Positions 3,377-64,000 of a stretch of 64,000 nucleotides of DNA are shown one piece after another. The notes below the pieces were generated by a model, which saw only the letters and a program-made list of their open reading frames with translations, ran no database searches and had not been told where the DNA came from. Within the stretch, counting starts at the first letter, position 1; every line of letters starts with the position of its first letter. Origin of the DNA: Escherichia coli (GTDB lineage: Bacteria > Pseudomonadota > Gammaproteobacteria > Enterobacterales > Enterobacteriaceae); the NCBI RefSeq assembly GCF_048403405.1, contig NZ_CP183129.1; one strand, 5' to 3'. Position numbers and translations under genes: made by a program.

Positions 3377-3427
3377 GAGAGATCCAGTGTGTAGTTTTCC
3401 TGTGGACACTATACGCCGGTAAAGAAA

Positions 3428-16118: not shown

Positions 16119-17654
16119 TTAATTACTCCCTTGCCTGATAATTGCAACTCCATTCCCTTTAGCTTTGGGATTATATTTTAGATAGGTGTTATTTGGTGTT
16201 CCCAAGTAACTACTGTATTCTTTTTTTCCCATTCCATTCATATAAGAATTCGTTAAATCTTTGCTTGAAAAATTTAGACTATCATAAACATCATTTTCTT
16301 TTGTTACTTTATTTCCTTTATCGTCAGAGTAAAAACCGTGAGTGTGATAATCACCTACTCTCTCTGAACCTTCAGGGCATTTTATATTTCGCAAGTCTAC
16401 ACTATCATTATCATTTGAACTTATCGGATTCATAGGGAAATATTCACCTTGCTTCTTACATATTAGTCCACCATATTCTTTATTCTTGTTAATTGATTCT
16501 CCATTACACATTGCCAATGCAAATATTCCAATATCATCTATATTTTTTGATTTAAATTCATATAATCCTAATGGATCCATGCCATTCACCGGGCTCAGCG
16601 GATATGTATACAGGTTCCATCCCCCCTTCAGCCCAATCGGATCCTGAGTGATATACCGCCCCTGCAGCGGGTCATAATAGCGGTGGCGGTTGTAATACAG
16701 GCCGGACTCCTCATCATACTGCTGACCCGGCAGGCGGATGAGCTGCTGCAGCTGATGCGGGTTCTCTTCATTCAGCTGGTTACCCCATTCATCGTATTCT
16801 GCGCACCATTCTGTTGCCCCTTCCGTGCTGACAAGCGCCAGCGGCAGGCCGCGATGGTCGCAGTGGTACAGGTGGATTTTTCGCGCCGGCGTGTACACCG
16901 GGTCCATCTGGTTTTGTATCTGCTCCACCGTCAGGCCGCACGATGCCAGCCAGCGGCGGCTTTCCTCGCTCACCCGGTCAGCCAGGATTTCACTTTCCAG
17001 CCGGTCGAGCATCTGCACCAGCACCGGCGGGAACACCACACTGCCACCGTCTTCACCGCCGGACTGCTGAAGCGCATCCGCCAGGCTGCGGCGCTGCGTT
17101 TTCGCCAGCTCACCGGTGGCAGTTTCAACTCTGATGAGTGGCGTGAAGCTCCCCGGCTGATAAACCGTCTGGATGCGGGTTCTGTCGTTCTGTATTGTGG
17201 TCAGCCGGTCGCCGTCCCAGCCGTACCAGGTCACTTCCGGTTTCCATGACAGCGACATCCAGCCCGTCAGGTCCCGTTCACGCCGCCATACCCGTTTTGC
17301 CACCCTGCGGCCCAGCAGGTCGTAAAGATAGCGACTTTCGACCAGCGGCTCTGCATATTGTGTCCGCGTGTAGTGCACCAGCCGGTGCCGGCTGTCGTAA
17401 TGGTACCGGTGAGTCCGCTCATCATCCGTGCGGATAACCCCTTCCGGGATGAGGTCGGTTTTCTCCGTCAGCCTGCCGTGACGGTCATACCGGTAAAGAT
17501 AGTGCGCGTCACGGGCGATACGGTTATCCGGCCATGCGCTGAGGGGGCTGTCCGGGTGCAGCTCCGGGTCGGGCAGGCGGTTGCCTGCCGGGTCCGTGGC
17601 ATACGGGATATCAATGCCCAGGTTACATATAATAATAAGAGCAATTAACTTAAT
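16119..17654 (-). CDS. orphan Rhs C-terminal module: 5'-truncated rhs core ending in the DPLGL motif plus a distinct ~150 aa toxin tip; no start codon of its own
   Basis: Frame is open from 17654 but first ATG/GTG/TTG is at 17378; residues ...[22 protein letters not shown]...[39 protein letters not shown] are near-identical to the main rhs; tip contains YHTHG. Confidence 0.7.
16606..17608 (-). repeat. ~1.0 kb direct repeat (orphan copy) of the rhs core 3' region
   Basis: Near-identical to 20946..21938 (only scattered mismatches on visual alignment). Confidence 0.8.
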
Positions 17655-20403: not shown

Positions 20404-23400
20404 CTATCTTATATCACTGGGTTTTTCTGGCGTACCTTGCATATTAGAAATGGGGTGCCCAGATGGCCCATATGTTATCCAATTACCAAGGTCTTTTGTT
20501 GTTATAGCCATTAGATCCTTATTTGAATTAAGGTTCGTTGGTGCTGTTAGCACTGTATCCATTTTTAACTTACCATTAGTTCCTCGCCCCCACCACGTCC
20601 ATAGCGTGTCAGGTCCTATTACATTTGTATGTAACTCTTTAGCTAATTGGCTAGCAAATGAATTTTGTCCTTTACCTGTATTACAAGAAAATAACCAAAC
20701 TGTCATCCCATCTTTATAATTCCCATCAAATTTAATTAGATATGCTAGATCTTTAGCTGTCATGATACTGCGCGTTGCGGATTCAATAGATGTGGGGGTA
20801 CCATGCCCCCCGATTGTGAAAACGCCTGGGATATTAATCTCATCAGCTACAGAATGGATAAGATCACTTTCGGGGTATAAATTTATATCAACCAAACCTT
20901 GCGGATCTACATTTATGACCGGATCCAACGGATACTGATAAAAATTCCATCCCCCCTTAAGCCCAATCGGATCCTGAGTGATATACCGCCCCTGCAGCGG
21001 GTCATAATAGCGGTGGCGGTTGTAATAGAGGCCGGACTCCTCATCATACTGCTGACCCGGCAGGCGGATGAGCTGCTGCAGCTGGTGCGGGTTCTCTTCA
21101 TTCAGCAGGTTGCCCCATTCATCGTATTCTGCGCACCATTCTGTTGCCCCTTCCGTGCTGACAAGCGCCAGCGGCAGGCCGCGATGGTCGCAGTGGTACA
21201 GGTGGATTTTTCGCGCCGGCGTGTACACCGGGTCCATCTGGTTTTGTATCTGCTCCACCGTCAGGCCGCACGATGCCAGCCAGCGGCGGCTTTCCTCGCT
21301 CACCCGGTCAGTAAGGATTTCACTTTCCAGCCGGTCGAGCATCTGCACCAGCACCGGCGGGAACACCACACTGCCACCGTCTTCGCCGCCGGACTGCTGA
21401 AGGGCATCCGCCAGGCTGCGGCGCTGCGTTTTCGCCAGCTCACCGGTGGCGGTTTCAACTCTGATGAGTGGCGTGAAGCTCCCCGGCTGATAAACCGTCT
21501 GGATGCGGGTTCTGTCGTTCTGTATTGTGGTCAGCCGGTCGCCGTCCCAGCCGTACCAGGTCACTTCCGGTTTCCGTGACAGCGACATCCAGCCCGTCAG
21601 GTCCCGTTCACGCCGCCATACCCGTTTTGCCACCCTGCGGCCCAGCGGGTCGTAAAGATAGCGACTTTCGACCAGCGGCTCTGCATATTGTGTCCGCGTG
21701 TAGTGCACCAGCCGGTGCCGGCTGTCGTAATGATACCGGTGAGTCCGCTCATCATCCGTGCGGATAACCCCTTCCGGGATGAGGTCGGTTTTCTCTGTCA
21801 GCCTGCCGTGACGGTCATACCGGTAAAGATAGTGCGCGTCACGGGCGATACGGTTATCCGGCCACATGCTGAGGGTGCTGTCCGGGTGCAGCTCCGGGTC
21901 GGGCAGGCGGTTACCTGCCGGGTCCGTGGCATACGGGATGCGGATATCCAGATTCGCTGCGGTGGTGTGGACGCCGGTCAGCCTGCCGGTGTCGCTGTAG
22001 CTGTAACTCCGGGTCTGGCGCGGGCTGCTGATGCGGATGAGTTCGCCGTTGTCGTTCCAGGTGTAATCGCGGTCATACTGCAGGCTGTTCAGGTGCTGGC
22101 TCTGTAACTGCCCGGCAGAGGTGTAAGCGGTGGTGAGTTCATAACGGCCGAAGCTGCGCAGCGTTTCCCGGTGCAGGCGGTCGCGGGTGAAATCCACCAG
22201 CGGTGTGTCGCCGAGTTTCATGCCTGACAGCCAGCCGCTGCCGTAGGTCAGCCATTCCACGGCGGGCAGGCTGTCCGGTATACAGCGGTTCGCCAGTCCC
22301 TGCGCGTTGTACGCATGTCTGGTTTCATGCTGCCAGAGCAGTGCTTCCGTCTGCGGGTGATGCACCGTCTGGCGCTCACCGGTCAGGCGGCCTTTCTCAT
22401 CATACCCGTAATGCACCGTCACCCGGTGGCCTTCGCTGAGATGGCTGATGCCTGTCAGCCAGCCGCGTTCGTCGTACCGCCACTGTTCTGCGGTTTCACC
22501 ATTCACCGTTCGCTGTGTGATGCGGTCTGCTTCGTCATAGTGCCAGTGGGTGACCAGCCCCTCATCCTCGCTGCGGATAAGTTTGCCGGTCAGGTCGTGG
22601 TGATAACGCTGTGTGCGGCCGTCAAAGCCGGTTTCCTGTATCAGCCGGTCAAGTACATCGTAACGGAAGGTGGTGTGGCTGCCGTTTTCACTGGTCAGGC
22701 GGATGACCCGCCCGGCAGCATCGTATTCCATACTGCGCGTCAGACCGCCCTGCGTGGTACGGATGGCCTTTCCCCACGCATCGTACTGTGTCCCGTTTCT
22801 GCTGTCGTCCGGGGCAATGACGGCGGTCAGGTCACCGGCGGCGTTGTATTCATACCGCGTTTCATGGCCCTGCATGTCTTTCACCGCAATTAACTGTCCA
22901 CGGCTGTCGTATGCGCGGTACTGGCTCAGGCCTTCCTCGCGGTGCACCGTCGTCACCTGACCAAAACGGTCATGGTCATAGCGGGTTACATAACCGGAAC
23001 AGTCGGTAAAGCTCAGCAACTGACCGTAACGGCTCCACGTCATGGTTTTCCGGCTGCCGGTGGCATCTTCCGTTGCGCAGGGGAAGTCACTGTGTGGATT
23101 ATCATAACGGTAGCGGGTGATATCGCCGTCAGGGGCGGTTTCCTGAATCAGACGGCCGGATTCATCATATTTGCGGCGCAACTCCAGCCCGTCAGTCCCG
23201 GTGGCTGACGTTAACTGGTTGTGGTGGTTATAGTAAAATGCCGATGCCCTGCCATCCGGTGTGGTGATGCGCGTGATGAGTCCCGTCACCACATCCGGGC
23301 TGTACTCAGTCGTCCGGCCTGCGGCATCCGTCTGTGCCTTAAGCCTGCCCACCGCATCAAACTGACTCTGCGCGACGCTGCCGTCCGCGTGTTCCTTTTT

Positions 23401-29638: not shown

Positions 29639-29662
29639 AACCCTCAAAATCCCCCCCATCTA
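29634..29662 (+). promoter_or_regulatory. sigma32 heat-shock promoter of hslVU (gTTGAAA-N13-CCCCATcTA)
   Basis: Match to sigma32 -35/-10 consensus about 70 bp upstream of hslV. Confidence 0.7.
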
Positions 29663-43346: not shown

Positions 43347-43450
43347 GATGCCGGATGCGGCGCGAACGCCTTATCAGGCCTACAAAAGTTTGCAAATTCA
43401 ATAAATTGCAGAATTCACGTAGGCCTGATAAGCGAAGCGCATCAGGCATT
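43347..43450. repeat. REP / BIME (two inverted palindromic units: gatgccggatgcggcgcgaacgccttatcaggcctac ... gtaggcctgataagcgaagcgcatcaggca)
   Basis: Classic REP consensus in convergent orientation. Confidence 0.85.
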
Positions 43451-49494: not shown

Positions 49495-50439
49495 TTATTT
49501 CACCGTACCTAAAATTTCGATTTTCGCTGCTCTGGCTTTGACTTTACGTGACCAGATAGAGGTAAGAATTGGCACCAGAATCGAAGTCACAATGACCGCC
49601 GTCGCGACCAGCGAAGTTGCTGCCGGAGCCATCGGTTTAAACGCAGGCACCATTTCTGCAATCAGCACAGGTGTCGCTACCGCGGCCCCTGCGGAACTGG
49701 AAGCGGCAATTCCGGCAGTGCCATCGCCACCGCCAATCAATTTATCGGCGATAATCAACGGAATACCGGTCACGATAATTACTGCCACACCCAACAGGAT
49801 CCCCAGCAAACCTGTCTGGGCAATTACAGTCAAATCAATGGTATTGCCCAGCGCGAAGGCAAAGAATGGAATCAGCGTCTGCACCGCTTTGCTGAAAAAT
49901 TCTCGTAATTCAGGGTCAAGGTTCCCAAGGGCAAAGCCCACCAGGAACGGTAATACTGCGCCGACGAAAACATGCGGTTCAAACGAGGCAATCCCGGCAG
50001 TGCCCAGAATAATCATCGTCATGAGCGGCCCGGACTCCAATGACATCAACACAAATGCCCCAGCTTCTTCTTTTGTGCCGTACTGCTGCATGATGGAAGC
50101 GTAAAGTCCGCCGTTGGTCATATCCATCGCCGCCACCAGCGCCAGCGTTGAAAGTCCGGCAAAGAATCCAACTTCAACACCATGTTCCGGAATAATGCGC
50201 GAGGCAATTGCCGCAACCACCCACGCGACGGCAATTTTTGTTACCACCAGCGTACCGGATTTACGCAATACCGTTCCCGTCGCGCTTAATTGTATTGACG
50301 CCCCCATGCAAAAAAACCACACCGCCAGAATGGGCACCGTACCGGTAATCATCCCGTTGGTGAATGATCCAAAATATTTCCCCGCCTCCGGCGAGAAGGT
50401 GTGGCACAGTGCGCCAAGGAATAGCGGGACGAGCATCAT
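49495..50439 (-). CDS. kdgT: 2-keto-3-deoxygluconate permease; N-terminus here starts at MMLVPLF, with the expected upstream 13 codons in another frame
   Basis: 314 aa ORF; polytopic membrane protein; see finding on the C6/G3 homopolymer at 50436..50477. Confidence 0.85.
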
Positions 50440-50649
50440 CCCCCCGGGATTTTCTCAATCGAGCGTTTTATCTGCATTTCCATCACCTGTCGGCATATTT
50501 TTAAGGGCTGATGCGTAATTCCTCAATGGAGCATCAGTGTTGATGGAAACGAAGATAGACATTCATTTAATCAATAAAAGTGATCAAAACCACATCAATT
50601 GAAACACTGTTTTATTTTTATCGGATCATTGTTTTTATTTTGAAATTGA

Positions 50650-51360
50650 TCACAAATAAATATCCTCCGGCATAGCCGGAGGTTTTTCAAATGCGCCTAT
50701 AAGGCTCTCTTACCAGCCGCGCCCTAACAGGCGCACACGATCTGACATTTGCATCCAACTTCGTTACTTACGGCCCGTAAACGGGCTGCCCGGATAGGGA
50801 ATCGATAACTGCTCTCCCATTTTATCCTCTTCAAGCTGGTGCTTTATGTAATCCTGTATCTTCGCCGTGTTCTTACCCACCGTATCGACGTAGTACCCTC
50901 TGCACCAGAACTCCCTGTTCCTGTATTTGAATTTCAAATCACCAAACTGCTCGTAAAGCATCAGACTGCTTTTCCCTTTCAGATATCCCATAAAGCCGGA
51001 TACGCTCATTTTGGGCGGGATCTCCACAAGCATATGGATATGATCTGCACAGCATTCAGCTTCCAGAATCCGTACACTTTTCCACTCACACAGCTTTCTC
51101 AAAATACTGCCTATTGCTCTACGCTTCTCTCTGTAGAACACCTGTCTTCGGTATTTTGGCGCAAAAACTATGTGATATTTACAGTTCCATCGGGTGTGCG
51201 CTAAGCTCTTTTCGTTCCCCATTGGGACCCCCTTTTGATTTCTTGTTTGACACTTGCAGTTGCCAGACCGCAAGGTGTTTTAACAAATCAAAAGGGGTTT
51301 TAATAACTGGCTTAAAGCTGAAAGCTTTCCGGAACCCCCAGCCTAGCTGGGGGTTTTCTG
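50650..51360 (-). mobile_element. IS200-like element (IS200/IS605 family), approximate boundaries
   Basis: Contains IS200-type TnpA; characteristic perfect hairpins cctccggc-ata-gccggagg (50665..50683) and cccccagc-cta-gctggggg (51334..51353) near the ends. Confidence 0.75.
50764..51225 (-). CDS. tnpA: IS200 transposase TnpA (HuH Y1 family)
   Basis: MGNEKSLAHTRWNCKYHIVFAPKYRRQVFYREKRRAIGSILRKLCEWKSVRILEAECCADHIHMLVEIPPK... ; HxH motif; ~153 aa. Confidence 0.9.
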   Translation of the reverse strand, partial: PMGNEKSLAHTRWNCKYHIVFAPKYRRQVFYREKRRAIGSILRKLCEWKSVRILEAECCADHIHMLVEIPPKMSVSGFMGYLKGKSSLMLYEQFGDLKFKYRNREFWCRGYYVDTVGKNTAKIQDYIKHQLEEDKMGEQLSIPYPGSPFTGRK

Positions 51361-51451
51361 TGCACAACAAAAAAACCACCGCCGTTGGCGATGGTTCATT
51401 TTTTAAGCTGATATGCGGCGTAAACGCCTCATTGCAGCAGGCGGCAAATGA

Positions 51452-63312: not shown

Positions 63313-64000
63313 GTTACTGCAACAGTTGTGCGAAGCCAGCGCCGTCAGCGGCGATGAACAGGAAGTTCGCGACATCCTGATAAACACGCTGGAACCTTGC
63401 GTTAATGAAATCACCTTTGATGGTCTGGGTAGCTTTGTTGCCCGTAAGGGGAATAAAGGTCCAAAAGTTGCCGTTGTCGGGCATATGGATGAAGTCGGCT
63501 TTATGGTCACCCACATCGACGAGAGCGGTTTTTTGCGTTTCACCACCATTGGTGGCTGGTGGAATCAGTCGATGCTCAACCACCGGGTAACCATACGCAC
63601 ACACAAGGGAGTGAAAATCCCTGGTGTGATTGGTTCCGTCGCGCCTCATGCGTTAACCGAAAAGCAAAAGCAACAGCCGCTTTCATTTGATGAGATGTTC
63701 ATTGATATTGGCGCGTACAGTCGCGAAGAGGTGGAAAAACGCGGCGTGGAAATTGGCAATTTTATTAGCCCGGAAGCCAATTTTGCCTGCTGGGGCGAAG
63801 ATAAAGTGGTCGGCAAGGCTCTGGATAATCGCATCGGCTGCGCGATGATGGCTGAGCTACTACAGACAGTAAATAACCCCGAAATTACGCTGTACGGCGT
63901 CGGCAGCGTGGAAGAAGAAGTTGGGCTACGCGGGGCACAAACCTCGGCTGAACACACTAAACCGGATGTGGTGATCGTGCTGGATACCGCTGTCGCAGGT
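63302..64000 (+). CDS. frvX: M42-family aminopeptidase/cellulase-like FrvX, 5' portion (3' end outside the window)
   Basis: ATG 63302; MNIELLQQLCEASAVSGDEQEVRDILINTLEP...; open to the window end; overlaps frvB stop. Confidence 0.8.
   Translation, partial: MNIELLQQLCEASAVSGDEQEVRDILINTLEPCVNEITFDGLGSFVARKGNKGPKVAVVGHMDEVGFMVTHIDESGFLRFTTIGGWWNQSMLNHRVTIRTHKGVKIPGVIGSVAPHALTEKQKQQPLSFDEMFIDIGAYSREEVEKRGVEIGNFISPEANFACWGEDKVVGKALDNRIGCAMMAELLQTVNNPEITLYGVGSVEEEVGLRGAQTSAEHTKPDVVIVLDTAVAG

Follow-up and report, generated by a model that had tools for sequence, protein, structure and literature searches.

The KdgT permeases (TIGR00793 / PF03812) include E. coli b3909 and Dickeya KDGT_DICCH, and the window considered here, a 64,000-nucleotide stretch of E. 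coli DNA, carries a gene with the same body at the sodA-kdgT-yiiM site, identical to WP_001166047.1 from residue 14 onwards. Unlike in intact KdgT, a 1-bp deletion puts the codons for the first 13 family-conserved residues out of frame with the body. Three further types of described system are relevant. The homopolymeric contingency loci of mucosal pathogens, such as the tracts of Bordetella pertussis (PMC1891110), resemble kdgT in that a run in the 5' coding region recurrently gains or loses one base and brings the gene in or out of frame. Unlike contingency loci, the kdgT run has just 7 G's, is found only in Escherichia and lies in a metabolic transporter gene. Translationally coupled overlapping genes offer a second likeness, given that the TGA of a 13-codon upstream ORF overlaps the ATG of the kdgT body, with a Shine-Dalgarno (SD)-like G-run upstream. 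In contrast to coupled operon junctions, the kdgT overlap is a mutational accident, and reinitiation across it is putative. Finally, the predicted KdgT fold resembles, in a fold search, transporters of the ASBT/BART superfamily (ASBT_NM, PDB 3zux and 8oyg; TM-score ~0.64). The sequence is unlike that of ASBT_NM (~17% identity), and the fold match is silent on the role of the N-terminal segment. A search of PDB sequences with KdgT detected no relative. We consider it likely that the window holds a genuine slipped-strand allele of kdgT at a recurrent hotspot, and that full-length KdgT is not made from it.

The minus strand from 50477 to 50436 reads ATG CAG ATA AAA CGC TCG ATT GAG AAA ATC CCG GGG GGA TGA, and the features of this region are given in Table 1. 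The first-pass annotation, made from the letters of the window, had placed the 5' end of kdgT here, and on re-reading the sequence its coordinates, its letters and the ATGATG start that overlaps the TGA are all as it claimed. The KdgT N-terminus that it gave is right, with 13 of 13 residues matching K-12-derived strain KLY. It had also proposed that a one-base difference in the C3/G6 run puts the first 13 codons out of frame, and that one base would restore a 327-aa protein. Both hold, as 4,650 of the 4,981 complete genomes with the exact context have G7, the usual length, and reference genomes with C3G7 encode 327 aa. In the alignment, C3G7 occurs in strain N3 and in KLY, where the product is 327 aa long. 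Aligned to other genomes, the change in length is restricted to the mononucleotide run and the flanks are unaltered.

Against TIGR00793, an NCBIfam equivalog with a cut-off of 453.8 bits, the 314-aa ORF scores 583.4 bits and covers positions 14-314, so that exactly the first 13 family positions are absent. The conserved N-terminal M-x-I-K-x-x-I-x-K-I-P-G-G segment is not in frame with this ORF. The DNA of the body is identical to the intact allele in strains 4621 and MS 69-1 (WP_001166047.1 residues 14-327). The gene order sodA-kdgT-yiiM, the usual position of kdgT, is kept, with an extra IS200C between sodA and kdgT. The locus is a gene of the KdgT family (TIGR00793 / PF03812) that carries a disrupted allele. 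Because the TIGR00793 alignment starts at position 14, with exactly 13 positions missing, the family model indicates that the likeness of the upstream remnant to KdgT is not due to chance.

Table 1. Features of the kdgT region and of the control run in the window
Feature	Position	Strand	Remarks
Control C7 run	29651-29657		ftsN-hslV intergenic, just upstream of hslV; frame irrelevant
kdgT body, 314 codons + stop	49495..50439	-	Longest ORF in the kdgT frame; no further lesion
Second ATG (Met15)	50436-50434	-	Read off the sequence
ATGA overlap	50436..50439	-	TG common to the start codon of the 314-aa ORF and the TGA stop of the remnant
Native kdgT 5' end remnant	50436..50477	-	ATG 50477-50475, 13 sense codons, out-of-frame TGA 50438-50436
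G6 homopolymer (C6 on + strand)	50440..50445	-	One base under the usual G7 allele
CCC directly 5' of the G-run	50446..50448	-	With the run, codes Pro11-Gly12-Gly13 (normal allele: CCG GGG GGG)
AGGTGA, likely native Shine-Dalgarno upstream of the native ATG (putative assignment)	50483..50488	-	Anti-SD duplex -3.8 kcal/mol
IS200C insertion between sodA and kdgT	50661..51366	-	tnpA 50764-51222; ends ~183 bp upstream of the kdgT ATG

With a query of 181 nt spanning the site, matches were obtained in 5,424 of the 5,426 complete E. coli genomes. No match reached 100%, and the full-length matches cover 182 bases. Tract lengths were counted with queries of 80-84 nt, for which 99% identity is reached by an exact match only. 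In exact context, G5, G6, G7, G8 and G9 occur in 4, 168, 4650, 154 and 5 complete genomes, respectively. The tract is therefore off-length in 6.6% of complete genomes, with a spread symmetric about G7 and with +1 alleles about as frequent as -1 alleles.

Protein records give a similar picture. Among index blocks for the protein body of K-12 type, 78,200 and 10,675 hold the full-length forms, and 3,322, 416 and 401 hold the off-frame forms of 313, 314 and 321 aa, respectively. Off-frame gene calls thus amount to 4,139 of 93,014 index blocks (4.4%), and their share is 3.7% on contigs of 50-200 kb (typical drafts) and 2.1% on those >1 Mb, where the contig-length class is a stand-in for sequencing technology and a proxy only. 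All of these protein-based shares are lower bounds, since PGAP outputs no protein for pseudogenes. The 321-aa form (MRKSRGG...) starts at a TTG and exists as an ORF in the G8 frame only. Among sampled loci, all seven 313-aa forms had G6 and all ten 321-aa forms G8, and the nine 314-aa loci comprised seven with G6, one with G8 and one with G7. In total, 15 of the 16 sampled 313- and 314-aa records derive from G6 or G8 tracts; the remaining one reflects a choice of start site on an intact G7 gene.

Off-frame tracts occur on at least 14 distinct kdgT DNA haplotypes, and both the K-12 haplotype and that of the window are each seen as G6, G7 and G8. These distributions show a genuine, recurrent slippage hotspot with +1 and -1 changes throughout the population, on many genetic backgrounds and in each of the contig-length classes of public assemblies. 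Some 4-7% of the E. coli genomes in public collections have the gene off-frame, which places kdgT among the more frequently broken core genes, and it can be expected to flicker between intact and broken in pangenome and pseudogene surveys. A literature search on frameshifts, indels, homopolymers and pseudogenization in kdgT returned no description of the E. coli tract as a hotspot. The matches were unrelated: they concern an A/T tract in Bordetella kdgT, pieces of kdgT on plasmids in Nanopore assemblies, and a mutation between sodA and kdgT from a study of tigecycline evolution.

Two minor observations concern the longer tracts. All five complete genomes with a G9 (+2) tract come from mouse (NZ_CP096902.1, NZ_CM133354.1, NZ_CM133351.1, NZ_CM132924.1 and NZ_CP167126.1), and may represent one mouse-associated clone with stepwise expansion of the tract; strain M8, a G8 genome, is also of laboratory-mouse origin. 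In some run-level assemblies the IGGGDG motif of KdgT is expanded to IGGGGGGGDG or longer, together with an off-frame 5' tract. Either this glycine stretch is another repeat-prone site, or its expansion signals poor assemblies.

For the window's own protein allele, two off-frame contigs compare with 529 full-length ones. Its 313-aa form occurs in two run-level assemblies, one with G6 and one with G8, and an exact look-up of the 314-aa product gave no match. Gene callers take the second ATG, which yields the 313-aa form. RefSeq (PGAP) labels kdgT a 'frameshifted' pseudogene in the G6 genomes SA186, 2011C-4251 and 13C1065T and in the G8 genome EC31. The window's kdgT is best annotated in the same way, as a frameshifted pseudogene or disrupted allele and not as a 314-aa protein.

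Is the missing base real, or did the consensus undercall one G in a strain that truly has G7? In its G7 form, the kdgT run would be one of only two G/C runs of at least 7 in the 64-kb window, and such runs are the most error-prone kind of site. The other is the C7 run between ftsN and hslV, where frame is irrelevant, and it served as a control. In the same ~5,425 complete genomes it is C6, C7 and C8 in 16, 5114 and 4 cases, respectively, that is, 0.4% off-length. The kdgT run is ~10 times more variable than the control for -1 changes and ~38 times for +1. Too-short calls in the same 5,426 genomes make up 0.3% at the control run vs 3.4% at kdgT. The control differs from kdgT in its surrounding sequence and may itself be subject to purifying selection, which makes the bound on the error rate that it provides approximate only. 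Assuming comparable error rates for the two runs, roughly a tenth of the G6 calls and a few percent of the G8 calls would be artefacts.

Some short calls do look like errors. In 51008369SK1 and 675SK2, the kdgT tract and the control tract are both too short, and these calls are probably artefacts of error-prone assemblies. Many G6 genomes fall in accession batches of single projects, kdgT of 13C1065T has a second indel, and the four nearest relatives of the window all have G7. Against an undercall in the window stand its intact control run and the lack of a second indel over 64 kb relative to strain 4621. At the level of the population, +1 alleles equal -1 alleles in frequency, and off-frame calls reach ~3.7% in draft contigs of 50-200 kb as well. 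Weighing these points, we regard an artefact as rather unlikely and the G6 allele of the window as probably real. Of the three options that the first-pass annotation had offered for the 5' end, a sequencing error, a slipped-strand variant or a real N-terminal truncation, the slipped-strand variant fits best, and it is favoured over sequencing error by the control run, the changes in both directions and the clean 64 kb. We advise that assembly polishing should not automatically 'correct' the site to G7.

The nearest relatives also bear on the age of the change. With a 6-kb query, strains 4621, MS 69-1 and TUM1226 and record OX030728 are identical to the window save for a length of 6,002 vs 6,001 bases. 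All four have G7, an intact 327-aa kdgT and IS200C between sodA and kdgT. Over the whole 64 kb, strain 4621 and the window are set apart by two substitutions, at positions 43376 and 63365, and by a single gap at the kdgT G. No other homopolymer differs in length from 4621: the C7 run, 21 A7/T7 runs and 4 A8/T8 runs are unchanged. Because the match to 4621 over 64 kb is complete save for two substitutions and one base, the comparison indicates that the loss of the G is a derived, single, recent and isolated event, and that the assembly is otherwise clean. As to the substitutions, position 43376 is A vs C relative to strain 4621 and lies in the REP-like sequence GCCTTATC[A/C]GGCCTAC, and position 63365 is G vs T and lies within frvX.

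What would be lost with the first 13 residues? An N-terminus of the form M[Q/H]IKRxIExIPGGMM is kept across Enterobacterales, including in Dickeya KdgT. In a set of 44 diverse representatives that reaches down to ~28% identity, all 44 have Pro11, 41 have Gly13 and 38 have Lys or Arg at position 9. Because codon differences between genera within this segment are mostly synonymous, the first 13 codons are translated and under purifying selection. The AlphaFold2 model of KdgT (mean pLDDT 92.6, pTM 0.88) places residues 1-10 with a pLDDT of 91, and predicts a short helix at 3-7, a KIPGG turn and a helix at 13-28. Under the positive-inside rule, the cluster of Lys4, Arg5 and Lys9 probably helps to orient the first membrane helix. 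Since the lost residues are conserved in the family and predicted to be structured, KdgT function is probably lost or much reduced in the G6 allele, and we predict impaired KDG uptake for this strain.

An opposite reading takes the first 13 codons as noncoding, with KdgT starting at Met14 or Met15 and the G6 tract harmless. Protein records of 313 and 314 aa do exist publicly, three distant representatives of the family begin at the position equivalent to Met15, and the G-run is a good SD mimic in front of Met15. However, 15 of the 16 sampled 313/314-aa records derive from frameshifted tracts, as described above, and the family model TIGR00793 takes in the 13 residues, which are modelled with a pLDDT of ~91. 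None of the full-length reference KdgT proteins starts at MMLVPLF, the sequence with which the 314-aa ORF opens. We give this reading virtually no credence, and reject Met14 or Met15 as the true start on the conservation of the 13 residues through Enterobacterales and down to ~28% identity, with mostly synonymous changes in the DNA.

The preferred reading, a slipped-strand allele, suggests the following course of events. Slipped-strand loss of one G from the G7 run that codes for Pro11-Gly12-Gly13 would cause translation from the native start to stop after 13 codons at the TGA, leaving the 314-codon body out of frame. Full-length KdgT would then not be produced, and uptake of 2-keto-3-deoxygluconate (KDG) would be lost or strongly lowered. 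A KdgT truncated at its N-terminus could still arise from Met14 or Met15, lacking residues 1-13 or 1-14, and would be without the family-conserved short helix and K-I-P-G-G turn that lead into the first membrane helix. Two features suggest that such a product may be made: the overlap of stop and start in ATGA, a classic arrangement for termination-reinitiation, and the resemblance of the G-run to a ribosome-binding site. The predicted pairing of the G-run with the anti-Shine-Dalgarno sequence is -9.1 to -9.4 kcal/mol vs -3.8 for the native AGGTGA, and 1.6% of random 20-mers reach -8 kcal/mol. Gene callers probably settle on Met15 because of this pairing.

A second source of residual protein is more speculative. 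The sequence C CCG GGG formally fits the X XXY YYZ pattern of a -1 slippery heptamer, and a -1 slip on it would recreate IPGGMM, so that some wild-type protein might, as a speculation from the sequence, be made from the G6 allele. Programmed -1 frameshifting as the normal mode of expression was considered and rejected, given that the in-frame G7 allele is the norm (93%).

How did a G7 run come to lie in this segment? In Citrobacter, Phytobacter and Serratia, Pro-Gly-Gly is encoded by CCT GGC GGG, CCG GGT GGG and CCG GGC GGC, respectively, and in Dickeya and Ewingella by CCG GGT GGC and CCC GGT GGA. Like E. coli, E. whittamii and Escherichia sp. E1V33 carry G7. From these codons, the run is specific to Escherichia and stems from a synonymous choice of GGG over GGY at Gly12. 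Its age within the genus is only loosely bounded, as the species-level scan returned two non-coli Escherichia, one contaminated metagenome-assembled genome (MAG) and no E. coli representative. The MAG in question (JADFIR010000037.1, 'Planctomycetota bacterium') carries at 3380-3402 a kdgT 5' end identical to that of E. coli, which is probably bin contamination.

So, is the window's kdgT a gene that has been switched off, and that could be switched on again? Within the 5' coding region, the G-run toggles the frame, with G7 in and G6 and G8 out. A selected contingency locus would go further, in that the run would be kept for reversible switching of KDG uptake and the window would derive from an OFF-phase line. 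Consistent with this are the location of the tract in the 5' coding region and the occurrence of both directions of change on identical haplotypes. Off-frame alleles also appear young, as the window equals a G7 relative over 64 kb, the G7 run is shared with E. whittamii and Escherichia sp. E1V33, and the KdgR regulon has been reported to be selected in the mouse gut (PMC4674774). On the other hand, other genera break the run within the same Pro-Gly-Gly, which makes it look incidental, and the allele frequencies fit plain mutation-selection balance under weak selection. The literature search returned no account of switching at the kdgT tract. Seven G's are also fewer than in classical G/C contingency tracts. 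We judge it very improbable that the run is maintained by selection for switching. Under the preferred reading, allele frequency would instead reflect a hypermutable site near mutation-selection balance, with weak selection on the gene.

It is also improbable, in our estimation, that G7 at codons 11-13 acts as a reversible ON/OFF switch of KDG uptake, a metabolic contingency locus in a commensal. If it did, G6 and G8 cells would form a standing OFF subpopulation that has an advantage under certain host or diet conditions and reverts under others, and reinitiation or a -1 ribosomal slip could supply some residual KdgT in OFF cells. The tract behaves as a slippage hotspot, and because it is short and restricted to Escherichia we do not class it as a phase-variable locus. 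An ecological effect of kdgT alleles is conceivable: in the mouse gut, selection acts on the KdgR regulon (PMC4674774), and KdgR represses both kdgT and kdgK (PMC6892915; PMC4784465). With that regulon as a target of selection, the kdgT hotspot also touches gut-adaptation studies (PMC4674774).

Upstream of kdgT lies the IS200C insertion, which among the best matches is found at sodA/kdgT only in 4621, MS 69-1, TUM1226 and OX030728, and which occurs neither in K-12 nor in the other G6 and G8 genomes examined. We considered IS200C as a cause of the frameshift and rejected it: the element lies 183 bp upstream, is common to the G7 relatives and is missing from other G6/G8 genomes. Between the insertion and kdgT, at 50597-50617 on the minus strand and ~120-140 bp upstream of the kdgT start, lies AAATAAAACAGTGTTTCAATT, which has inverted AAACA/TGTTT arms. 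This sequence resembles the KdgR operator and is a candidate site; it is intact and downstream of the IS200C insertion.

Elsewhere in the window, two copies of a 1-kb direct repeat (16596-17609 and 20926-21939, 97.5% identity) occur in a region of RHS elements. In the near-identical strain 4621, this region also contains IS1H and ISAs1 transposase pseudogenes.
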